Shown here one piece after another: positions 14,783 through 40,943 of a DNA stretch of 64,000 bases. Within the stretch, counting starts at the first letter, position 1; every line of letters begins with the position of its first letter. The stretch is from Chloroflexota bacterium (GTDB lineage: Bacteria > Chloroflexota > Limnocylindria > Limnocylindrales > CSP1-4): positions 3,419 to 67,418 of the forward strand of contig JBHORA010000039.1 of NCBI GenBank assembly GCA_042408535.1. Direction: 5' to 3'. The notes under the pieces were generated by a model. The model saw nothing but the letters and a program-made list of their open reading frames with translations. It ran no database searches and was not told the origin of the DNA. Position numbers and translations under genes: made by a program.

Positions 14783-14811
14783 TTGACCCACCGGCCGGGT
14801 CGGCATACGCT
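14783..14811 (+). promoter_or_regulatory. sigma-70-type promoter candidate (TTGACC - 17 nt - TACGCT)
   Basis: -35 at 14783-14788 and -10 at 14806-14811, placing the TSS a few nt before the riboswitch aptamer. Confidence 0.5.
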
Positions 14812-14819
14812 CGCCCTTC

Positions 14820-14881
14820 GGCGATGGCGTCCGCCGAGACGGTGTCCGTCTGAACCGCCCGCACGGGCTGATGGCTCCTGC
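14820..14881 (+). promoter_or_regulatory. fluoride riboswitch aptamer (crcB motif), copy 1
   Basis: GGCGAUGGCGUCCGCC / AGACGG-UGU-CCGUCU / GAACCGCCC-GCAC-GGGC / UGAUGGCUCCUGC. The blocks match the remembered B. cereus and T. petrophila fluoride aptamers. Confidence 0.8.
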
Positions 14882-14962
14882 ATCATTCTGCCGGGGCGTG
14901 ACGCTCCCGAAGAGGCGTCCCGAGGGCGCGTCGCGAACCCCGTCCCGAGAACGGAGGCTAGC

Positions 14963-15970
14963 GTGAGCGAGGCGAGACGGACGGCGTCGGCGGGCGACGA
15001 GGCGAGCCTGCCGGCCACGGCGGGCGGACGCTTCTGGTCGCGCCTGCAGGCGGCCGTCGGCCGAGCCATCGTCGGCGGAGGTGAGGCGCTCCGCTTCCTG
15101 ACGATCGCCCTTCTGGCCGAAGGCCATGCCCTCATCGAGGACGTCCCCGGGACCGGCAAGACGACCCTCGCCCGGGCCTTCGCCCGAGCCCTTGGCCTCT
15201 CCTTCGCCCGGGTCCAGGGCACCCCCGATCTCCTGCCCGGCGACGTGACTGGGAGCAGCGTCTTCGAGGCCGGTCGCTTCCGCTTCGTGCCGGGGCCGAT
15301 CTTCGCCAACGTCCTCCTCGTCGACGAGATCAACAGGGCGACGCCTCGGACCCAGTCGGCGCTCCTCGAGGCGATGCAGGAGCGCCAGGTTTCCATCGAC
15401 GGGACGACCCACCGTCTCCCGACCCCCTTCCTCGTCCTGGCGACCGAGAACCCGATCGAGCTCGAAGGAACGTTCGCGCTGCCAGAGGCCCAGCTCGACC
15501 GCTTTCTCGTCCGGACGAGGCTCGGCTACCCCGACGAGGTCGAGGAACGCCGGATCGCCGCCCTCTACCGCGACGGTCGGCTCCCGATCGAGGACGTGCC
15601 CCAGATCACGAGCTCGGATGAGCTCGGATCGCTCATTGCCGCCGCCGCCCGCGTCACGGTAGCCGAGGACGTCGAGCACTACATCGTCGCCCTCGTCCGA
15701 GCTACCCGCGACCACCCCGACGTCCGGCTCGGGGCGAGCCCGCGGGCGAGCGTCGCCCTCTACCGGGCAAGCCAGGCGGCCGCCCTCCTCGCAGGGCGCG
15801 ACTTTGCCCTCCCCGACGACGTCGCGGCGGTCGCGCCGGCTGTCCTCGTCCACCGAATCCTCGTCGACGTCGATCGGGAACTCCGGGGAGCGAGCGCCGA
15901 GCAGATCATCGCTGACGTCCTCGACCGAACGCCGGCGCCGCCGATCGGCCTTGCTCGCTCCGGGCACTGA
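14963..15970 (+). CDS. moxR: MoxR-family AAA+ ATPase
   Basis: GGAGG 5 nt before GTG 14963; EDVPGTGKTTLARAFARAL, LLVDEINRATPRTQSALLEAMQE, ATENPIELEGTFALPEAQLDRF. Confidence 0.9.
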   Translation: MSEARRTASAGDEASLPATAGGRFWSRLQAAVGRAIVGGGEALRFLTIALLAEGHALIEDVPGTGKTTLARAFARALGLSFARVQGTPDLLPGDVTGSSVFEAGRFRFVPGPIFANVLLVDEINRATPRTQSALLEAMQERQVSIDGTTHRLPTPFLVLATENPIELEGTFALPEAQLDRFLVRTRLGYPDEVEERRIAALYRDGRLPIEDVPQITSSDELGSLIAAAARVTVAEDVEHYIVALVRATRDHPDVRLGASPRASVALYRASQAAALLAGRDFALPDDVAAVAPAVLVHRILVDVDRELRGASAEQIIADVLDRTPAPPIGLARSGH

Positions 15971-15989
15971 AGCGGGAGGTTGACCAACG

Positions 15990-17243
15990 ATGCCTCGTGG
16001 GGTGCTCGTCCCGGGTCCCTCCGGCCTCGTCGTCGCCGTTCTCGTCGGCCTCGGGCTCTGGAGCGGCGCGACGGGCCTCGTCTTCGTCGGTCTCATCGTC
16101 GGCCTCACGACCTGGCTCCGGACCGTCTGGTCCAGGCGCGGCCCGGTGGCCCTCCTCTACCGCCGCGAGCTCGCCTCCGAGCGGGCCGTCTGGGGCGATC
16201 GGGTCCCCCTCACCCTCGTCGTCGAGAACCGGAAGATCCTTCCCCTCGCCTGGCTCCGCACCGACGACTTCGTTGGCGACGAGCTCGTCCTCGATGGGAT
16301 CGCCACGGTGCCCACGGAGCGACCCGGGATCGCCAGCCTCCGAATGACCTGGTCCCTGGCGCCGTACGAGGAAGTCCGGCGGCAGCTGGCCATCGTCGCC
16401 GAGCGTCGGGGGCGGTTCCGGTTCGAGTCCGTCGCGCTGACCGTCGCTGACCTCTTCGGCCGGTCGGCGACGACCGTTGAGCGCCTACTCCCGGCGACGC
16501 TCGTCGTCCGGCCGCGGACGGTCCCGGTTCGGCTCGGCGGCCCGGCCGTCCTCCCCCTTGGCCCGCGCCGGCTCCGGCGCGGGCTCGTCGAGGACCCCGC
16601 CCTCTTCGCCGGCATCCGGCCCTTCCAGCGCGGGGATCCGCGGCGCCGCGTCCACGAGCGGGCGACGGCCCGGCTCGGTCGACCGGTGAGCAAGCGCTTC
16701 GAGCCGTCGGCGGCCCGCGACGTGGTCATCGCCCTCGACGCCCAAACGGTGCCGGGACCGGTCTGGCTCCTCCAGTGGGATGACGACCTCGTCGAAAGCC
16801 TCGCCGTGGCGGCAGGATCGCTCGCCCGCCGGCTCCTCGACGATGGTGCCGCTTGTGGCCTGGCCGTGAACGCCTGGACGTACCAGCCTGACCGGATCGG
16901 GTTCGTCCCGCCGAGGGCGGGCCCTGGCCAGCTCGCCCGGATCCTCGATCTCCTCGGCCGGCTGACGACCGTTCCCTCGATGCCGTACCCTCGGCTCCTC
17001 GGGGCCATCGGCCGGCGGATCAGCGCCGGGTCCCTTGTCATGACCCTGAGCAGTCGTGATCCGAGCGACGCCCTCCCCGTCCTCCGGCGTCTCCGATCCA
17101 GCGGCTTCGAGATCCTCCACATCGCCCTCGGCCCGGAGGCGACGGCGCACGCGGCCCTGGTTCGCCGGTTCGGCCTGCCGGCCCGCGTTGCCCGTCTCGC
17201 CCCCGACTGGCGGACCTGCCATGCCATCGAGTTGGCGAGCTAA
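15990..17243 (+). CDS. DUF58 domain protein (vWA-like partner of MoxR)
   Basis: Two N-terminal TM helices, then ...FAGIRPFQRGDPRRRVHERATARLGRPVSKRFEPS...VIALD, typical of DUF58. Confidence 0.85.
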   Translation: MPRGVLVPGPSGLVVAVLVGLGLWSGATGLVFVGLIVGLTTWLRTVWSRRGPVALLYRRELASERAVWGDRVPLTLVVENRKILPLAWLRTDDFVGDELVLDGIATVPTERPGIASLRMTWSLAPYEEVRRQLAIVAERRGRFRFESVALTVADLFGRSATTVERLLPATLVVRPRTVPVRLGGPAVLPLGPRRLRRGLVEDPALFAGIRPFQRGDPRRRVHERATARLGRPVSKRFEPSAARDVVIALDAQTVPGPVWLLQWDDDLVESLAVAAGSLARRLLDDGAACGLAVNAWTYQPDRIGFVPPRAGPGQLARILDLLGRLTTVPSMPYPRLLGAIGRRISAGSLVMTLSSRDPSDALPVLRRLRSSGFEILHIALGPEATAHAALVRRFGLPARVARLAPDWRTCHAIELAS

Positions 17244-18609
17244 GCTCGGCTGGCGACTCCTCGGGCTCCTCCCGGCCGCTGCCGCAGCGACCGCGGAAGG
17301 GGCGTGGGTCGCTGTCTGGTACGCCGCGCTCGGTGCCGCCGATCGCCCGGCGCGGCCGCTTGGCCTCATCACCTTCGTGGGGGCGGCAGCGGCCGGTCTC
17401 GTCCTCGCCCGGAGGCTCGAGGGCAGGGGGCGGCTGGACCGACGTGCAGAACGGGTCGTTCGCCGGCTCATGCTCGGTGCGGCCATCGGTGGCGCGGCAG
17501 CGCTCGGTCTCGCCCTCGAGGGCCCCGTCGGGAGCGGTGACGTTGCCGACTGGATCGGTGGGCTCGCCGCCGGCGCCCGCCGGGGCGAGGTCGGCGGCCT
17601 TCTCCTCGGCGTCGCCGCGTGGCGGGGGACGCGCCACGCCGCTCCGGAGCGGGACGACCTCGTGACGGCCGGCCTCCTCGGCTGGGGAGCGCCGCTCCTC
17701 GGCATCCCGTGGCTCGTCGGGGGCCTCCGGCCCGGGCCCGCCTTCGTGGCGAACGCTCTCGTCGCGACCCTCGTCTTCGTGGCGGCGAGCCTCGTCGCCA
17801 TCGGCCTGACCCGTCTGGAGGCCCTCGCCCAATCGGCCGGCCTCGACTGGCGGCGGAACCGAGCCTGGCTCGTCCTCCTCGTCGCGGTCGTCGCGTCGGC
17901 GAGCCTCCTCGCCCTCCCGGCGGCGGTCCTCCTCGGGGCATCCGTCGACGCCCTCCTGGCCGGCCTCGCCGGTCCGGTGGCTGTCAGCGTCGAGGTCGCC
18001 GAACGGGCCGTCGGGCTCCTCGGGAGGAGCGTCGGCTCGACGCTCGGGACAGCCATGCCTGGTTCGCCCGGCGAGGTCGGCGGCACCTCGGGGGTCGGCG
18101 ACCTCGTGCCGAACCTGTCGATCCCGGGCGTCCTCGCCGGCCTCGCGGCGGTCCTCTTCGCCATCGTTGTCCTCGTCGCCGCCCACCGTTTCTGGAGCCG
18201 GGTCCGCGGCGGTCGGCCGTCGCCGACGCCACCGCTGCCGATCGTCGAGGAACGGCACGTCCGGCCCCCGCGACCGAGGGTCCGTCTCGCTCTCCCGAGG
18301 CTCGCCCTCCGCCTGCCGCGTTTCCGCGGCGGGCCACGCACAGCGACGGAGGCGTACCTCGACCTGGCGGCCAGGCTCGGGCCGGAAGGAGAGCTCGCCC
18401 GCCGCCTCGGCGAGTCGCCGTCCGGACACGCCCGCCGTCTCCGGAAGCGACATCTCGGCTCCGTCCGCCTCGACCTCCTCGCCGCCGACGTCGCCCTCGA
18501 GCGGTTCGCCGGCCGCGGTCTGCCGCGACGGGAGGTGGCGCGGGCCATCGACAGGGCACGGGACCCGCGGCTCGCTGGCGATGGGCGGTCGGGAGGAAGC
18601 CGTGGCTGA
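17221..18609 (+). CDS. polytopic membrane protein with DUF4129-like C-terminus
   Basis: ATG 17221 overlaps the DUF58 end by 23 nt. Multiple TM helices; C-terminus TEAYLDLAARLG...ESPSGHARRL...ERFAGRGL. Confidence 0.7.
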   Translation: MPSSWRAKLGWRLLGLLPAAAAATAEGAWVAVWYAALGAADRPARPLGLITFVGAAAAGLVLARRLEGRGRLDRRAERVVRRLMLGAAIGGAAALGLALEGPVGSGDVADWIGGLAAGARRGEVGGLLLGVAAWRGTRHAAPERDDLVTAGLLGWGAPLLGIPWLVGGLRPGPAFVANALVATLVFVAASLVAIGLTRLEALAQSAGLDWRRNRAWLVLLVAVVASASLLALPAAVLLGASVDALLAGLAGPVAVSVEVAERAVGLLGRSVGSTLGTAMPGSPGEVGGTSGVGDLVPNLSIPGVLAGLAAVLFAIVVLVAAHRFWSRVRGGRPSPTPPLPIVEERHVRPPRPRVRLALPRLALRLPRFRGGPRTATEAYLDLAARLGPEGELARRLGESPSGHARRLRKRHLGSVRLDLLAADVALERFAGRGLPRREVARAIDRARDPRLAGDGRSGGSRG

Positions 18610-18649
18610 CCGGTCGTTCGACACGGGCGGCGCGGACGAGGGGACGACC

Positions 18650-19909
18650 ATGCGCAGCGTCGAGGTTGGGCCGGGATCGAAGGCGACGGCCGGGCCGGTT
18701 CCGCCGAACGGCGCCGCCTCCGGGTGGCTGACCCCCGGCGTCCGAGGCATCGGGGCGGCCAGTCTCCTCTCCGACCTCGGTCACGAGGTCCCGACAACGC
18801 TCCTGCCGGCCTTTCTCTCGTCCGCCCTCGGTGCGCCGCCGGCCGCCCTCGGCCTCATCGAGGGGCTGGCCGACGGGCTCTCGGGCCTGGCCAAGATCGC
18901 AGGTGGGCCGTTTGCTGACGAACCCGAGCGACGTCGGTCGATCGCCGTCGGCGGCTACACCCTGGTCGCGGTCCTGTCGGCGGCGATCGGGCTCGCCACC
19001 GCCGTCTGGCAGGTGGCGATCCTGCGAACCGGTGCCTGGGTCTCGCGTGGCTTTCGGACCCCGGCCCGGAACGCCCTCCTCGCCGACGCCGTCGACCGTC
19101 GGGTGTACGGCCGGGCCTACGGCTTCGAGCGGGCGATGGACAACCTCGGAGCGGTGCTCGGTCCACTCGCGGCGCTCGCCCTCGTGAGCCTCCTCGACGT
19201 CCGAAGGGCGATCCTCGTCTCGGTCGTCCCGGGCCTCCTCGCCAGCCTCGCCATCCTGTACGCCATCCGCCACATCCGTGCAGCGCCCCCCGGAGCGACG
19301 GCCCGTCCCCGACGCCGAGGTTTCGATCTCCCCGTCCGCTCCCTTCTTCGGGGTCGCCTCCGCCGCGCCTTCGTCGTCGTGGGGGCCTTCGAAGTCGGCA
19401 ACGTGGCGGCGACGCTCCTCATCCTTCGAGCCACGGAGGTCTTCACGGCGGCAGGCCGAGCCGACGCGGCACAGCTCGCCGTCGCCCTCTACGTCGCTTA
19501 CAACCTGGCTGGGACGCTGGCGAGCATTCCCTTCGGGCGACTCGGCGACGCTCGCGGCTTCACAGCGCCGCTCCTCGCCGGATTCGCCCTCTTCGCTGGG
19601 GCCTACGGTGCCTTCGCCCTCGGGCCGGCCGACCCGCTCCTCCTGGGTGCCGCCTTCGTGGCCGCTGGGGTCGGCATCGGCATCGTCGAAACGGGTGAGC
19701 ATGCCATCGTCGCTTCCGCTGCCCCGCCGGAGGCGCGAGGCTCGGCCTTCGGGCTCCTGGCCGGCGCCCAGAGCTTCGGCGATTTTGCCGCCAGCGGGAT
19801 CGTCGGCATCCTCTGGAGCCTCGGCGGAGGGACGATCGCCTTCGCCTATGCCGCCGCCTGGATGGTGATCGCCTTCCTTCTCGCCGCGCTCGTCCGGCCG
19901 GGCCGCTGA
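18650..19909 (+). CDS. MFS transporter
   Basis: GIGAASLLSDLGHEVPTTLLPAFL..., roughly 12 hydrophobic segments, with the GRLGDARG loop motif. Confidence 0.85.
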   Translation: MRSVEVGPGSKATAGPVPPNGAASGWLTPGVRGIGAASLLSDLGHEVPTTLLPAFLSSALGAPPAALGLIEGLADGLSGLAKIAGGPFADEPERRRSIAVGGYTLVAVLSAAIGLATAVWQVAILRTGAWVSRGFRTPARNALLADAVDRRVYGRAYGFERAMDNLGAVLGPLAALALVSLLDVRRAILVSVVPGLLASLAILYAIRHIRAAPPGATARPRRRGFDLPVRSLLRGRLRRAFVVVGAFEVGNVAATLLILRATEVFTAAGRADAAQLAVALYVAYNLAGTLASIPFGRLGDARGFTAPLLAGFALFAGAYGAFALGPADPLLLGAAFVAAGVGIGIVETGEHAIVASAAPPEARGSAFGLLAGAQSFGDFAASGIVGILWSLGGGTIAFAYAAAWMVIAFLLAALVRPGR

Positions 19910-19966
19910 CCGATGTTCGGGGTCGGGCGACCCTCGAGATCGGGCGATGGCCCCAGGGGCCGCCAG

Positions 19967-19995
19967 TTGACCGGCGTCGCCGTGGCGCCTATCCT
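19967..19995 (+). promoter_or_regulatory. sigma-70-type promoter candidate (TTGACC - 17 nt - TATCCT)
   Basis: -35 at 19967-19972 and -10 at 19990-19995, which is 7 nt before the second aptamer. Same architecture as at 14783. Confidence 0.5.
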
Positions 19996-20002
19996 TTTTG
20001 CC

Positions 20003-20068
20003 GGCGATGGTGTCCGCCGAGACGGGACGCTCCGTCTGAACCGCCCGATCGGGCTAATGGCCCCTGAC
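20003..20068 (+). promoter_or_regulatory. fluoride riboswitch aptamer (crcB motif), copy 2
   Basis: GGCGAUGGUGUCCGCC / AGACGG-GACGCU-CCGUCU / GAACCGCCC-GAUC-GGGC / UAAUGGCCCCUGAC. A competing hairpin at 20059-20088 sequesters the 3' pseudoknot strand. Confidence 0.8.
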
Positions 20069-20122
20069 CGATGGTTCGGTCTGGGGCCGTTCGATTCCCC
20101 CGGCCAGACGGAGGTGTCTCGC

Positions 20123-21412
20123 GTGGACAACCTGTATGTCGTCGCTGCACTCTGGATCGGCATCGCCCTTGTCGCTAGCCTCGTCTCGATCCGGCTCGGC
20201 GTCTCGGTCGCGCTCGTCGAGATCGCCCTTGGGGTCGCCGCCGGGAACGCCATCGGGCTGACGACGACGCCGTGGGTGGACGTTCTGGCCGGCTTCGGCT
20301 CGGTCATCCTGACCTTCCTCGCCGGGGCCGAGATCGACCCAGGAGCGCTCCGCCGACACCTGAAGGCGAGCCTCGCCATCGGGGCGGTCTCCTTTGCCGC
20401 CCCCTTTGTCGCCGCCTGGGCCGTCGCCTCCTCCGTCTTCTGCTGGGACCTGGCGGCCAGCCAGATCGCCGGCGTCGCCCTGTCGACGACCTCGGTCGCC
20501 GTCGTCTATGCGGTCATGATCGAGTCTGGTTTGGCGAGCGAAGAGCTCGGGAAGCTCATCCTGGCGGCCTGCTTCGTCACCGACCTCGGCACGGTCCTCG
20601 CCCTCGGGATCCTGTTCGCCGACGTCAGTCCCCTCCTGCTCCTCTTCGGGGCGGCGACGGCGGGCGTCCTCCCCGTCGTCGGGCGGGCGACGCGCTGGTT
20701 CGTCGAGCGCTTCCCGAACCGTGTCTCGGAGCCAGAGACGAAGTTCCTCCTCCTCGTCCTCTTCGGCCTCGGCGGGCTCGCCGCAGCCGCCAGGAGCGAG
20801 GCCGTCCTGCCGGCCTATCTCCTCGGACTCGCCGTGGCCGGCGCCCTGGCCGAGGCCCGGGTCCTCGTCCACCGGATCCGGGCGATCGCCTTCAGCCTCC
20901 TCACTCCCTTTTACTTCATCAGGGCGGGTCTGTATGTCTCGCTGCCGGCCGTCGTGGCAGGAGCCGGACTCGTTGCCGCCTTCTTCGTGATCAAGGTTGG
21001 GTCGAAGGTCGTGGGCGTCTGGCCGACGACGCGGGCCTTCGGGCTCCCCGCCCGGGAGTCGACGTACGCGACGCTCCTCATGTCGACGGGGCTCACCTTC
21101 GGGACGATCTCGTCCCTCTTCGGCCTCAGCCACGGCTACATCGACCAGGCCCAGTACACGGTCCTGGTGACCGTCGTCATCCTGTCGGCCGTGGCGCCGA
21201 CTCTCGTGGCGACGACCTTCTTTAGCCCGGTCCTCGCCGGCGAGGCCGAGCTCGAGGAGTTCGATGCGGCCGAGGAGATCGACGCTGGCCTCCTGCCGCG
21301 GCCGGGATCGGCCGAGGAGATCGGCGCGGCGGCGGCCTCCAGGAGGGCTGGCTCGGGCCGCCAGCTGGCGAACGATGAGCGCGTCGCAGTCGGCGAGGCG
21401 GAATCCGCCTAG
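20123..21412 (+). CDS. cation:proton antiporter (Na+/H+ exchanger family, CPA type)
   Basis: GGAGG before GTG 20123; LTFLAGAEID, ALSTTSVAVVYAVM, about 11-12 TM helices and an acidic C-terminal tail. Confidence 0.85.
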   Translation: MDNLYVVAALWIGIALVASLVSIRLGVSVALVEIALGVAAGNAIGLTTTPWVDVLAGFGSVILTFLAGAEIDPGALRRHLKASLAIGAVSFAAPFVAAWAVASSVFCWDLAASQIAGVALSTTSVAVVYAVMIESGLASEELGKLILAACFVTDLGTVLALGILFADVSPLLLLFGAATAGVLPVVGRATRWFVERFPNRVSEPETKFLLLVLFGLGGLAAAARSEAVLPAYLLGLAVAGALAEARVLVHRIRAIAFSLLTPFYFIRAGLYVSLPAVVAGAGLVAAFFVIKVGSKVVGVWPTTRAFGLPARESTYATLLMSTGLTFGTISSLFGLSHGYIDQAQYTVLVTVVILSAVAPTLVATTFFSPVLAGEAELEEFDAAEEIDAGLLPRPGSAEEIGAAAASRRAGSGRQLANDERVAVGEAESA

Positions 21413-21449
21413 AGGCGCCGGCACCAGGGCGCCTGGCGACGTCACGCCG

Positions 21450-23081
21450 ATGGCCCCCGAGCCGGGCGGCGCCCGGACGGATGAGGCCAGCCAGGGGGGA
21501 CCCCGGGGCATCGACGTCGGCTGCGTCGTCTGCCGCTTCGTGGCCGAGGCGGTCGAGCGCCGGATCTTCTTCCTCTTCGCCGAGGCGGTCGGTGAGTCGT
21601 GGTTCGTCGCCAAGATGCGGGCTGGTGGGTTCTGCACGGCCCACGTCCGGCACCTCGTCTCGGCCGGCCGCGGTCCGCGGCTGACGGGCCCCTTCGAAGA
21701 CGTCCTCAATGGCTGGCTCGCCCGGCGGCGAGACGCCGGCGGGACGGCTCTGCCCTCGGTCGGCGAGGCTTGCCCGATCTGCGAGACCGCGACCTGGGCG
21801 ACGAACCACGCCCTCGGGCTCCTCGCCTCCGGCGACGCGCGGCGGATCGAGGTCGGCCTCGGCCGATCCGGCCCGCTCTGTCTCATCCACCTCGATCGGC
21901 TCATCGACTGGATGCCCTGGCAAGACCAGGTTGCGGTCGCCCGGCGCTGGGCGGAGCGGCTCCTGGAGGCCGTCTGGCTGGCGAGCGAGGTGGATGCCGC
22001 GGCCCCGGACGCCGCTGCTCATCGCCTCGCTGCGGATCGCCCCGCCGCGGCCCCGGACGCCGCCGCCGATCGCCTCGCCGCCGATCGCCTCGCCGCCGCC
22101 GTCGCTGTCCTCGCCGGCCCCTCTCCGATGGTTCGGCAGCCGGAGGTGAGCCCGGTCGCTCAAGTGCGCCCAGGGCGGACCGTCTCCACTCCGGAGGGAC
22201 GCCGATCGGGCGCCGCGGCTGGCTGGCACGACGGACTCCTCACCGAGGCCGGCCTGCTTGCCGAGCTCGCGGCGGGGCGCTGCCCGGTTTGTACCGCCGG
22301 TATCGCCGCCCAACAGCGACTCCTCACCTGGCTCGCCGAGCCCGCCCCGACGCGCGACCACCGCGACCTCGATGCCCTCTGTGGCGACCACCTCCGCCAG
22401 CTCGCCCGGCTCGCCCCGGCGAGTGCCGCCTCGGCGACCCGCAGCGCCCTCGAGCGCCGCCTGGCGATGCTCGCGGCGCTGCCGACCGTCGCCGACCGGC
22501 CACCGCTCCAGCTCGCCGAGCGGGTCCGCTGGGCATGGCGGCGGGCTCGGGCGCGCGGGCCGAACGAGCGGGGCGGTTCGCTCAGCATCGGGGTCCGGGC
22601 CGTCTGGCGCGCCCTTCGCTCCCCCCGCGACTTCGTCGCCGAGCCGCTCCGCCGAGCTCGCGTCGCCGCCGATCGGGAGTGCGTCGCCTGCCGCGCCGCG
22701 ATCACCGCCCGTCGTCGCTCGCTCGCCCTCCTCGGGGCGACCCTCCGGAGCCGAGGCGGGCGCGACCGATTCGAACGGAGCGGTGGCCTCTGCCTCCGGC
22801 ACACCGCCGCTGCCGCGGTCGCCGGGCCGGCCCTCGGGCCGGTCGGTCTCGCCCTCGTCGGGGCGGTCGCTGAGGGCCGAGTCGTTGGCGTCCGTTTCGA
22901 GCTCGAGGAGGCGCTGCGGAAGTCGAGCTGGTCGGTCCGGTACGAACCGGTCGGACCCGAGGTCACAGCCTGGCGGCGGGCGATCCTCTTGGTCCTCGGC
23001 AACGCCGCGCTTCCCGATGTCGACGACTCGCTTGCCGTCGCGGCGGCCGACGAGACCGACCGCCCGCGACGGGCCGTCTGA
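21450..23081 (+). CDS. Cys-rich protein with four CxxC...C-x2-H modules (internally duplicated)
   Basis: CVVCR..(33)..GFCTAHVRHL; CPICE....GPLCLIHLDRL; CPVCT....ALCGDHLRQL; CVACR....GGLCLRHTAA. An Ala/Asp repeat linker joins the two halves. The C-terminal ELEEALRKSSWSVRYEP..EVTAWRRAI recalls DUF6062-type proteins (from memory). Confidence 0.7.
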   Translation: MAPEPGGARTDEASQGGPRGIDVGCVVCRFVAEAVERRIFFLFAEAVGESWFVAKMRAGGFCTAHVRHLVSAGRGPRLTGPFEDVLNGWLARRRDAGGTALPSVGEACPICETATWATNHALGLLASGDARRIEVGLGRSGPLCLIHLDRLIDWMPWQDQVAVARRWAERLLEAVWLASEVDAAAPDAAAHRLAADRPAAAPDAAADRLAADRLAAAVAVLAGPSPMVRQPEVSPVAQVRPGRTVSTPEGRRSGAAAGWHDGLLTEAGLLAELAAGRCPVCTAGIAAQQRLLTWLAEPAPTRDHRDLDALCGDHLRQLARLAPASAASATRSALERRLAMLAALPTVADRPPLQLAERVRWAWRRARARGPNERGGSLSIGVRAVWRALRSPRDFVAEPLRRARVAADRECVACRAAITARRRSLALLGATLRSRGGRDRFERSGGLCLRHTAAAAVAGPALGPVGLALVGAVAEGRVVGVRFELEEALRKSSWSVRYEPVGPEVTAWRRAILLVLGNAALPDVDDSLAVAAADETDRPRRAV

Positions 23082-23091
23082 GGAGACTGAC

Positions 23092-24525
23092 GTGGTCGAG
23101 AGGGCCGGGATGCCCGGGATGGAGATCGGACCGAGCGCTGCCTTCGTCGACCCGGCGATGGAGTCCGGGCCGCCCTCCGAGGGACGGCTCGTCCTCGTCG
23201 AGGTCGAGCGGGCGACGGGCCCAGGGCCCGCCGTCGAGTTCGACGATCGCGGTCGGCCGCTCGTCCGCAGCTTCCGGGCCGAGGGGATCTGGCTGGGGTT
23301 CGACCACGGCTCGGTCCCCGAGACCGACGACGGTCGTGGCCGCACCCTTGCCGCCCTCGTCGCCCTCCCGGGCTCCACGTTCCCGGGCTGCCGGATCGCG
23401 GCCAGGCTCACCGGCGCCCTCGTGTCGGGGGACCGCGTCGTCCTGCTCGCTGCCCTGCCTGGCTGGCCGCCGCCCGCCATCGGCCTGGCCCGGGCGGCCG
23501 CGGCCCTCGGCGACGCGGCGCACCTCGAGGCCGAAGCGGCCGCCGACCTCCTCCGTCGGGCCCGCCTCCGGTACCGCGAGCGGGTCCGGGCCGGTCGCCC
23601 GACCGGAGGCCGGGCCTGGGCGGCGATCGGCCGGCTGCCGCCGGAGCTGGCCCGCTTCGCCACGCCCCACTCGCCGGCCGAGTACCGACTCGCCCAGCTT
23701 CCGCCGCGACTCGTCCGCGGCCTCGAGGGGATCCTCGACGACGACGAGCGGATCCTCGCCTGGGTCCGCCGCCCGGCGATCCTCGAGGGCGGACTCCGCG
23801 AGACCCTTCGGCGGGCGGGTCGCCGCGTCGATCGTCGCGAGGCGGTCCTCGTCCTCACCGATCGCCAGCTCGTCTGGGTCGTCGACCACGCCGAGCCCGG
23901 GCGCTACCTCGTCGAGTGGGGCGTCGACCTCGAGCTCGTGCCCCTCGAGCGGTTGATCCAAGTTCGGGCTGCCACGACCGCGGACGTCATCCGGCTCACC
24001 GTCGAGACCGACGCCGGGGGATCGGCGAGGAGCCGGTCCTACGAGCTCCCGGCCGAAGCTACCGCCGAGACCGAGGTCGTCGTCGCCCTCCTCGAGCGGT
24101 TCACGCCGGAGGCCGCCGATGGCCGCCCGGTCCGTCGCTACGAGCTCGGGGCGCGCCAGCCGGCGCTCGAAGAGGCGGACCGGTTCCACCAGCGGGAGGT
24201 CGCGGTCGCCTTCCTCGAGCGAGCGGGGGAGCTCGGGGAGGTCCTCGGCTTCCTCTTCAGCCCCCGTCGGCCGGGGACGCGCGAACCCTCGGCCCTCGCC
24301 GTCTTCGAGTGGGGCGCCGCGCTCCTCACGCCGGACGCGGTCGTTCGGACGTCGGCGACCGACCTCGCGGCCCTTGGCCTCACCCTCTCGCCGCTCGTGG
24401 GCCGCCTCTCGCTCGTGCCGGGACCGACGTTGACGTACCCGGCACCGTTCTCGACGACGGGTACCGCCGTCGTCCGGCTCCTCCGACGGGCGGCGGCGAA
24501 CGCGCGCCCGGGCCCTTCCCGCTGA
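23092..24525 (+). CDS. two-domain protein: degenerate inorganic-pyrophosphatase-like N-terminus plus bacterial PH-like C-terminal region
   Basis: AGGAG 7 nt before GTG 23092. LVLVEVERATGPGPAVEFDDRGRPLVRSF...FDHGSVPETDDGRGRT..PGCRIAARLTGAL follows the family I PPase pattern with acidic residues replaced. ERILAWVRRP...AVLVLTDRQLVWVVD is PH-like. Confidence 0.65.
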   Translation: MVERAGMPGMEIGPSAAFVDPAMESGPPSEGRLVLVEVERATGPGPAVEFDDRGRPLVRSFRAEGIWLGFDHGSVPETDDGRGRTLAALVALPGSTFPGCRIAARLTGALVSGDRVVLLAALPGWPPPAIGLARAAAALGDAAHLEAEAAADLLRRARLRYRERVRAGRPTGGRAWAAIGRLPPELARFATPHSPAEYRLAQLPPRLVRGLEGILDDDERILAWVRRPAILEGGLRETLRRAGRRVDRREAVLVLTDRQLVWVVDHAEPGRYLVEWGVDLELVPLERLIQVRAATTADVIRLTVETDAGGSARSRSYELPAEATAETEVVVALLERFTPEAADGRPVRRYELGARQPALEEADRFHQREVAVAFLERAGELGEVLGFLFSPRRPGTREPSALAVFEWGAALLTPDAVVRTSATDLAALGLTLSPLVGRLSLVPGPTLTYPAPFSTTGTAVVRLLRRAAANARPGPSR

Positions 24526-24581
24526 TCCTCGGGGCTCATCCCCGGGCCCGGCAGGCGCGCAGGTGCTCGCTCGGCCCTCGG

Positions 24582-26291
<1,710 letters not shown>

Positions 26292-40173: not shown

Positions 40174-40499
40174 CCCGGACCTCCGTCGATCTCAGAACAG
40201 CGGCGTCATGACGCCATGGTTGAGATCGAGCGTAACGCTCCAAAAGTCCGTCGTCAACGCACCGAGCAAGTAACGGAATACCGGAGGTTCGGTGCCTCGT
40301 GTCGAGGGAAACCCACGACGGGGCTCTCGCTGTCCATCCGGCGGTCGTCCGTGCCGAGAGTACCGGTCCCTCCCGGACCTTGGGGCCATCGAACATCGCT
40401 CCCGAACCCGGCACGATCGAGCCGACCGCACCGGACCGCAGCGAACCGGTCCGGCCCGGTCCGCGGGCAGGCACCCGCGAACTGGCAGGTGGATGCCGA

Positions 40500-40943
40500 A
40501 TGATCGACGAGCGACGAACCGAGGGGCCACTCGACCCGGCGCCTTCGACCCGCAGCAGCGCTGTCGGCTCGCAGCGCGTCCGTCGGGGTCGGTCGTCGGC
40601 AGAAACCCGCCAGCCGGGGTCGGGGCGCAGTGGAGGCCGGCGGCCGCCACGGCCGGGAGCGCCGACAGCCGTCGCCGGACAAGCCGATCGGCCCGGGACG
40701 CCGCCGACGAGGAGCCTGGCACCGACGCAGGCCATCTTCCGGCTCCTCCTCCTCCGTGGGCTTTCGGAGACCGAAGCGGCGAACCTCACCGCCTTCCTCT
40801 GCGGGCTCCCGGTCGGAGAGCGGCCCTGGCAGCTCCGCGAAGTGAACCAGCTCCTCTTCCTCCGCGAGCTCCATCGTCGCGGCCTCTTCGAGCGGGGCGA
40901 GGTCCCGCCGGGGCTCGACGTGACCCCACCGCCGCTCGCCTGA
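40500..40943 (+). CDS. hypothetical protein (only the C-terminal ~65 aa look protein-like)
   Basis: ...IFRLLLLRGLSETEAANLTAFLCGLPVGERPWQLREVNQLLFLRELHRRGLFERGE. The N-terminal half is Arg/Pro-rich and the start is uncertain. Confidence 0.35.
   Translation: MIDERRTEGPLDPAPSTRSSAVGSQRVRRGRSSAETRQPGSGRSGGRRPPRPGAPTAVAGQADRPGTPPTRSLAPTQAIFRLLLLRGLSETEAANLTAFLCGLPVGERPWQLREVNQLLFLRELHRRGLFERGEVPPGLDVTPPPLA

Follow-up and report, generated by a model that had tools for sequence, protein, structure and literature searches.

The stretch of DNA analysed here (64,000 nucleotides from a Chloroflexota bacterium; hereafter the window) carries an operon headed by a fluoride riboswitch. The last gene of this operon (the target, 23092-24525) encodes a 477-amino-acid protein in which a copy of a family I inorganic pyrophosphatase (PPase) that has lost its catalytic site is followed by two consecutive PH-like domains. 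An initial annotation of the window had described it as a degenerate PPase-like domain fused to a PH-like region at the end of a fluoride operon. All coordinates given for the operon and for the target domains are on the forward (+) strand.

The open reading frame (ORF) of the target starts with GTG at 23092 and closes with a stop codon at 24523-24525. A Shine-Dalgarno sequence, GGAG (23082-23085), can be read directly 6 nt ahead of the GTG, and 10 nt separate the TGA of the upstream gene (23079-23081) from the target start. A word-indexed search retrieved 71 homologs that cover more than 90% of the target and are 42-79% identical to it, all of them unnamed or "hypothetical". When 1.84 billion representative proteins were searched exhaustively with a profile, 207 clusters were obtained, 56 of them with E <1e-30, which makes this a family of approximately 200 clusters at 50% identity. 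The AlphaFold2 model of the target, calculated from a 35-sequence alignment, has a predicted local distance difference test score (pLDDT) of 86.2 and a predicted template modelling score (pTM) of 0.79. Given the homologs, the clusters and this confident model, the ORF is a real, conserved gene, and its start and stop codons lie at the coordinates that the initial annotation had given. Searches with Pfam and NCBIfam returned no match to the target, even at E = 10; neither database contains a model for its subfamily, which in contrast to the family I PPases goes unrecognised by Pfam. Membrane segments and long hydrophobic stretches are absent, so that the protein is expected to be soluble. Its N-terminal tail (residues 1-29, 23092-23178) is variable in length and sequence, poorly conserved, and disordered in the model (pLDDT <50 for residues 1-28).

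The head of the operon is formed by a fluoride riboswitch aptamer (crcB motif, RF01734) at 19994-20073, which scores 41.3 bits in Rfam (gathering score 34, E 5e-8) and 92.7 bits with a purpose-built covariance model, R1. It is fronted by a promoter-like site, TTGACC and TATCCT with a spacing of 17 nt (19967-19995), the sole sigma-70-like match within 19800-24900, where shuffled sequences give an expectation of 0.0. The first gene (20153-21412, start codon not fixed) encodes a cation:proton antiporter of the Na_H_Exchanger/CPA2 type (PF00999, E 4.4e-35; TIGR00932, E 3e-27). The second (21450-23081, within an ORF spanning 21264-23081, start codon uncertain) encodes a Cys-rich protein with a weak match to DUF6062 that remains under the cut-off (PF19538, E 1.7e-4). 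The target is the third and last gene, 3 kb from the aptamer, and is followed by a malate synthase gene in convergent orientation. It is therefore found downstream of an RF01734 aptamer on the same strand and in one transcription unit, in agreement with its description as the end of a fluoride operon, and the operon is predicted to be under fluoride-riboswitch control. Besides the aptamer at 19994-20073, Rfam identifies one more fluoride aptamer in the window, at 14811-14887, and the 2.9-Mb assembly contains no others; with just two fluoride riboswitches in an assembly of this size, a chance adjacency is negligible. The aptamer at 14811-14887 (51 bits) heads genes for a MoxR AAA+ ATPase, a DUF58-like protein, a membrane protein and an MFS transporter (14811-19909).

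A PPase-like barrel and its lost catalytic site

Structure comparison by Foldseek, profile alignment by hhalign, a residue table and conservation all assign residues 30-165 (23179-23586) to a family I PPase-like beta-barrel without a catalytic site. A Foldseek search with an AlphaFold model had been suggested in the initial annotation. Run against the PDB, it returned family I PPases exclusively among the 50 matches listed, the best being the Mycobacterium tuberculosis structure 4Z71 (E 4.5e-7, prob 1.00, approximately 157 columns, 22% identity, TM-score 0.54 per target). The model shows the five-stranded OB-like beta-barrel core with flanking helices that characterizes the PPase fold.

At the sequence level, a phmmer search of PDB sequences with the target also placed family I PPases on top, with weak scores (E 0.035-0.2), and the family profile gave a marginal PPase match (E 0.27). 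As these matches are marginal, the search of PDB sequences is by itself insufficient to assign the fold. We therefore also rely on hhalign, for which the family N-terminal domain was aligned to a PPase alignment composed of the canonical enzymes of the source genome and 13 relatives, plus that of E. coli. The two align with E 6.6e-6 and 85% probability over 130 columns at 28% identity, and share the block PTFxGCRxxxRxxG. Moreover, the family profile retrieved ten distant full-length relatives, and each of them matches PF00719 (33-97 bits, cut-off 23.5), so that the chain from the target to the PPases is closed on sequence alone. Within the subfamily, PF00719 matches were seen for 2 of the 35 members, both weak (E 0.11). 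Homology of the N-terminal domain to family I PPases, whose pattern the initial annotation had read in the N-terminus, is thus supported, and direct membership of the profile is not.

The target shares its beta-barrel fold with the family I enzymes (PF00719) of M. tuberculosis (Rv3628, 4Z71/1SXV) and E. coli (Ppa, 1FAJ), as well as the VEVE/VEIP and PTFxGCR motifs; it is approximately 300 residues longer, owing to the linker and the two PH-like domains. It differs from them in the active site. In PPases, D65, D70 and D102 coordinate two Mg ions between which fluoride binds, and pyrophosphate (PPi) is held by K29, R43, Y55, K104, Y141 and K142 (E. coli numbering throughout). By hhalign and MAFFT, the target keeps 2 of the 14 conserved active-site residues of the E. 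coli enzyme, E20 (E39 in the target) and E31 (E49). K29 is substituted by A47 (D in the consensus), R43 by S60 (R in most homologs) and Y55 by H72. D65, G66, D67 and D70 correspond to R82, G83, R84 and A87, so that three Asp are replaced and Arg stands where a Mg-binding Asp stood. The position of D97 is not conserved, D102 and K104 fall in a gap by hhalign and are L and A by MAFFT, and Y141 and K142 are deleted. Accordingly, neither the metal-binding cluster (D65-x-D67-x-x-D70 plus D97 and D102) nor the set of PPi-binding residues is found in the target.

Two of the readings made by eye in the initial annotation, AVE at the K.E position and FDHG at the NYG position, are recovered in these alignments as A47-V48-E49 and D71-H72-G73. 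Its reading of the acid cluster as DGRGRT was right about the loss but two residues out of register with respect to R82/G83/R84/A87. The loss extends to the family. The full 14-residue set occurs in none of the ten members tabulated residue by residue, some distant members retain two of the three loop aspartates, and among 95 full-length superfamily representatives no DxDxxD acid cluster was found by eye in 80 loop sequences. The PPase encoded on another contig of the source genome has all 14 active-site residues intact. With the metal-binding aspartates and most PPi ligands gone, a conventional active PPase is ruled out for the target on its residues, and the protein is predicted not to hydrolyse PPi, consistent with the earlier impression that catalysis was lost. 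The initial annotation had named two outcomes that would overturn it, the lack of a PPase-like fold and a conventional active PPase; we found neither.

Some distant members, such as P0130 (MCL5075777.1), P0119 and P0218, are annotated as "inorganic diphosphatase/pyrophosphatase" and have incomplete catalytic residues. This label is likely a systematic misannotation, and the target family should not be named diphosphatase.

Nevertheless, the PPase-like domain does not appear to be decaying, since its conservation within the subfamily (mean top-residue frequency 0.63-0.66) is as strong as that of the first PH-like domain (0.67). At least 90% conservation is seen at 24 of its positions, and E39, R62, W67, G69, D71, D79, D80, G81 and G83 are invariant in the subfamily. 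These invariant residues would be located on the face that once formed the active site, in its strands and loops.

The conserved linker and two PH-like domains

The PPase-like domain is followed by a basic linker (residues 166-215, 23587-23736; isoelectric point 11.8), which is the most conserved segment of the protein and contains W176, TPHSxAEY and LPxRF. The first PH-like domain (PH1, residues 216-340, 23737-24111) consists of seven strands and a C-terminal helix and carries the motifs DDDERIL and LTDRQLxWxVDH. The motifs ERILAWVRRP and VLVLTDRQLVWVVD, both of which had led the initial annotation to a PH-like region, form strand 1 and strands 3-4 of this domain, respectively. We take the succession of xxERIL and LTDRQL to resemble the fold signature of bacterial PH/GRAM-type domains. 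In the structure models a helical connector (residues 341-384, 24112-24243) leads to a second PH-like domain (PH2, residues 385-472, 24244-24507), with seven strands and a long C-terminal helix. The PH-like nature proposed for this region is thus borne out by structure matches, but not its description as a single module, as there is a second one at approximately residues 385-472.

A separate structure model of residues 200-477 (pLDDT 88.7) agrees with the full-length model in its secondary structure, with strands at 221-320 and 386-450 and helices at 321-335 and 451-470. Both modules therefore form the seven-stranded antiparallel beta-sandwich with a C-terminal helix by which PH domains are recognized. 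Against the PDB, the C-terminal model gave its top matches to tandem-PH proteins, namely Rtt106 (E 5.8e-4) and subunits of FACT, and to the single PH domains of Tiam1, Exo84, BRAG2, Lam6 and GRK2 (prob 0.82-1.00). Like Rtt106 and the middle domains of the FACT proteins Spt16, Pob3 and SSRP1, the target contains a pair of adjacent seven-strand sandwiches, both closed off by a C-terminal helix. Global superposition on the tandem-PH proteins is poor (TM-score 0.23-0.27, root mean square deviation approximately 20 Å), so that the domain type alone is shared and the mutual arrangement of the PH domains differs. A sequence relationship to these proteins is absent. The fixed double-PH arrangement with histone-binding surfaces that is typical of the tandem-PH histone chaperones is not found in the target, and nothing suggests a histone-chaperone-like activity.

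With respect to bacterial PH domains (bPH_2/bPH_3), the bPH families of Pfam were not detected in the target or its subfamily, and 2 of the 10 distant relatives show weak matches to bPH_3 in the PH2 region (E 0.06 and 0.25). When PH1 and PH2 were compared by hhalign, a relationship was not found (E 0.24), and an internal duplication is therefore not demonstrable. PH1 forms the core that is conserved superfamily-wide; together with the linker, it holds the most conserved residues at this level (W176, E197, P204, R206, F207, E219, R220, R227, T256, D257, D265, G277, E286, R287 and R348).

Fluoride riboswitches of the family and a possible role of the target

When species-representative genomes were scanned, 44 loci with a homolog were obtained, 43 of which are labelled Chloroflexota, Chloroflexia or Limnocylindria. 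More generally, all named family members seen belong to the Chloroflexota, except for one bin labelled Terriglobia (L004, CAWEJA010000008.1). The homolog from this bin shares 50% identity with the target and is flanked by the same neighbours. The bin is probably a metagenome-assembled genome that was mis-binned or mislabelled, a transfer being less likely.

The model R1 was built from six Rfam-confirmed aptamers and run on all loci, with a score of at least 48 bits considered strong; confirmation by Rfam was obtained at L002, L003, L004, L020, L068 and L073. A strong match upstream of the homolog, on the strand of the gene, was found at 27 of the 44 loci, and at 16 of these the aptamer lies within 300 nt of the matched region. 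Within 160 nt, L006 and L023 each show the succession of promoter-like pair, aptamer, Shine-Dalgarno sequence and start codon. Similar arrangements extend to distant superfamily members in other Chloroflexota families, where an aptamer confirmed by Rfam lies immediately upstream at 2 of 11 loci and a divergent aptamer lies 4 kb away at one more. Among 26 related genomes, fluoride aptamers occur in 7 of 10 that carry a family member and in 3 of 16 that do not (Fisher p = 0.015); in two of the three aptamer-bearing non-carriers the aptamer precedes crcB. As homologs in many genomes directly follow their own fluoride riboswitch, the link to fluoride is stronger than it appears from the window. 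The riboswitches at the head of the operon and at many homologs indicate that the family probably belongs to the fluoride stress response of the Chloroflexota.

Defence against fluoride is explained mainly by exporters (Fluc/CrcB, CLC-F) and by overproduction of inhibited enzymes, among them enolase and pyrophosphatase. The source genome (92% complete, 222 contigs) yielded no match to CrcB/Fluc (PF02537) or CLC (PF00654), and the same result was obtained for two other carriers (G112 and G321). CrcB is found in 1 of 10 carriers and in 6 of 16 non-carriers, a difference that is not significant (p = 0.19), and we dropped the idea of an anticorrelation between CrcB and the target family. As neither exporter was detected in a genome of this completeness, it is a possibility that the two riboswitch operons of the window are its main fluoride defence. 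The fluoride regulon as summarised, after Baker et al. (2012), in PMC11139923 and PMC7266159 includes crcB/Fluc, CLC-F, Na+/H+ antiporters, ppa, eno and MutS-like genes. Similar to this fluoride "super-regulon", the target is positioned behind RF01734 and, in the family, beside a Na+/H+ antiporter, DUF190-CBS and a pair of MutS domain-V proteins; the lack of a detected CrcB or CLC exporter sets the source genome apart.

Our preferred reading, which we hold with moderate confidence, is that the target is a non-catalytic binding or adaptor pseudoenzyme of the fluoride response. Fluoride would turn on the operon through the riboswitch, with the target transcribed as its last gene, and in many related genomes the homolog would be switched on as first or sole gene behind its own fluoride riboswitch. 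The product would be a soluble three-domain protein, consisting of a dead copy of a family I PPase, a conserved basic linker and two PH-like domains, in which the linker and PH-like domains may provide the surfaces for binding a partner protein or ligand under fluoride stress. The Arg that replaces metal ligands could perhaps be a built-in charge substitute for Mg. Because the homolog often stands as a unit of its own, the function is probably self-contained or exerted with a partner encoded elsewhere.

Several observations weigh against this interpretation. Induction of the target by fluoride is predicted from the aptamers alone, and the binding role is one that we infer. No aptamer was found by Rfam at 9 of the 44 loci, 4 of which have very short flanks. 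Eight more loci have weaker R1 matches (24-35 bits) that fall below the Rfam gathering score, and we therefore count 27 solid aptamers rather than 35. The invariant residues of the PPase-like domain were placed on the active-site face by alignment to known PPase structure elements and not in a measured pocket. Furthermore, the old metal loop is variable across the wider superfamily, where conservation is strongest in the linker and PH1, so that the PPase-like pocket may be merely structural. Conserved polar residues (H193, S194, E197, D257, D265, H266, D279 and E286) could form a new catalytic site. Finally, as the neighbouring gene is never constant, a partner cannot be named.

The presence of these polar residues leads to the alternative that the target is an enzyme with a new activity, for which the PPase barrel would serve as scaffold and the site would be formed by polar residues of the linker and PH1 or by the remodelled pocket. 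The substrate would be some phosphorylated or fluoride-related compound. The number of invariant residues outside the old site (H193, S194, E197, R206, E219, R220, D257, R258, Q259, D265, H266, D279 and E286), the location of the superfamily-wide core in the linker and PH1, and the five acids that the old pocket retains beside arginines in the subfamily (E39, E49, D71, D79 and D80) would all be consistent with this. However, the PH1 motifs xxERIL and LTDRQL resemble a PH/GRAM fold signature more than the residues of a catalytic site, PH-like domains usually serve in binding, and searches with Pfam, NCBIfam, PDB sequences and Foldseek turned up neither a known catalytic motif nor a known enzyme family. 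A new enzyme is the foremost of the alternatives, but we consider it unlikely.

The initial annotation had suggested that the protein could act as a decoy, sensor or scaffold. As a decoy, buffer or sensor, the dead pocket would bind an inhibitory species such as fluoride, Mg-fluoride or PPi and either sequester it or signal its presence through the PH-like domains. PPase is a classic fluoride target, and the ppa genes that the initial annotation had expected behind fluoride riboswitches are indeed among the genes most often linked to them, presumably to outnumber the inhibited enzyme (PMC11139923). The loop DSDDGxGR is invariant in the subfamily, which argues for a function at the old active site, and a genome in which neither CrcB nor CLC was detected would benefit from a mechanism that does not depend on export. 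Nonetheless, the ligands of Mg and PPi are lost or missing across the family, with the exception of R43 (S60 in the target), the loop is not conserved in the wider superfamily, and stoichiometric buffering would be a weak defence against a freely entering ion. We therefore regard this group of roles as improbable. Since the Mg ligands are gone, a fluoride decoy is the least likely of decoy, sensor and scaffold.

A more elaborate version, which we put forward as doubtful speculation, is an export-independent fluoride defence in which the dead PPase module would recognise fluoride stress and relay it through the PH-like domains to other proteins of the regulon. Possible cues include a species of Mg-fluoride or PPi and a partner damaged by fluoride. 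The relay partners could be the MutS domain-V pair, the MoxR-DUF58-DUF4129 proteins, the Cys-rich DUF6062-like protein or a zinc-ribbon/HEAT protein. Such a defence would fit the apparent absence of CrcB and CLC from the source genome, although the assembly is no more than 92% complete.

Pseudoenzymes often regulate active paralogs, and the target could accordingly be a regulatory subunit of the housekeeping PPase, in which the dead copy would join or bind the active hexamer and shift its fluoride sensitivity or location. A canonical PPase is present in the source genome and most close carriers, and the N-terminal domain shares the lineage-typical PTFxGCR with the enzyme of the source genome. 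However, the target lacks the helix region with Y141 and K142, a part of E. coli PPase that takes part in contacts within the hexamer. In addition, no PF00719 match was found in the close carrier G258 (95% complete) or in four carriers of distant members (G356, G177, G246 and G135, 91-96% complete), and in the distant carriers G069 and G404 the fusion protein is the sole PF00719 match. Carriers that lack a canonical family I PPase presumably rely on another type of PPase. With several carriers devoid of such an enzyme, a general pairing with the housekeeping family I PPase is unlikely, so that the scaffold suggested in the initial annotation can hardly be understood in this sense, and an obligatory partnership is weakened; overall, we give a role as PPase regulator very little credence.

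That the target is a passenger unrelated to fluoride, at the operon end by chance, could be argued from its place as third gene 3 kb from the aptamer and from the nine loci where no aptamer was found. This hardly credible reading is already contradicted by the aptamers directly in front of the gene at 16 loci (with promoter-like sites at L006 and L023), by the recurrence of the link in remote members of the superfamily from other families of the Chloroflexota, and by neighbours that are nearly always other fluoride-regulon genes.

If the target is indeed a pseudoenzyme of the fluoride response, the family presents an unusual case, as a sizeable group of proteins is wired to fluoride riboswitches and yet consists of a dead copy of the inhibited enzyme fused to interaction domains. 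It would be a further case, from bacteria, of a stress target turned into a pseudoenzyme, and offers a testable candidate for fluoride tolerance by means other than export, in genomes where no known exporter was found. In the literature searched, we did not find a description of a PPase-like/PH fusion or of a pseudo-PPase in fluoride regulons, and a PPase-derived pseudoenzyme inside this known regulon is probably new and apparently undescribed. Because fluoride tolerance is sought after for organofluorine degradation and synthesis (PMC11139923), new tolerance genes would be of practical use.

Neighbouring genes and variant aptamer-like motifs

A tally of the neighbours over 45 loci argues against a fixed partner gene, as even the commonest neighbour, a pair of MutS domain-V ATPases, is limited to 27 of the 45. 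It is followed by MoxR-DUF58-DUF4129 (14/45), an MFS transporter (13/45), DUF190-CBS (9/45), a Cys-rich DUF6062-like protein directly upstream of the homolog (9/45) and a Na+/H+ antiporter (7/45). The MutS-type neighbours are paralogous ATPases that consist of domain V only and are convergent or co-directional with the homolog (e.g. L006:11398-14400, - strand; L040:11561-15000, + strand). At some loci this pair has an aptamer-like match of its own (e.g. L040:11346-11426 and L033:12188-12250). The homolog directly follows the MoxR triad at L002, L007, L033, L037, L038 and L046.

A variant motif is common to 7 of the 8 loci with weaker R1 matches (24-35 bits). This crcB-like motif is located, on the + strand, at L018:1883-1956, L021:9423-9496, L026:2084-2160, L027:9376-9449, L028:293-366, L030:6105-6178 and L033:2435-2512. 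It is composed of GGCGATGAAGCCCGCC, a hairpin, GAY, a P2-like stem and GCTGACGGCTTCTAC, and differs from the canonical aptamer in the changes from AAC to GAY and from GAUGG to GACGG. These changes could reflect a compensated long-range pair or an altered specificity.

At six loci a conserved protein of 160-190 amino acids is encoded between the variant motif and the homolog (L018:1957-2470, L021:9498-9981, L026:2162-2741, L027:9450-9993, L028:369-912 and L030:6181-6760). It contains a zinc-ribbon motif (CPxCYAINAW...CxRCG) and a HEAT-like repeat region (DHPDTATA...AIEPL...DPYRAAAAVRALRAF), and is another candidate member of the fluoride regulon. In carrier G321, the homolog occupies two overlapping frames (G321:C8:39699-40415 and 40409-40711) instead of one, due to either a frameshift, which would make it a pseudogene, or an assembly error.

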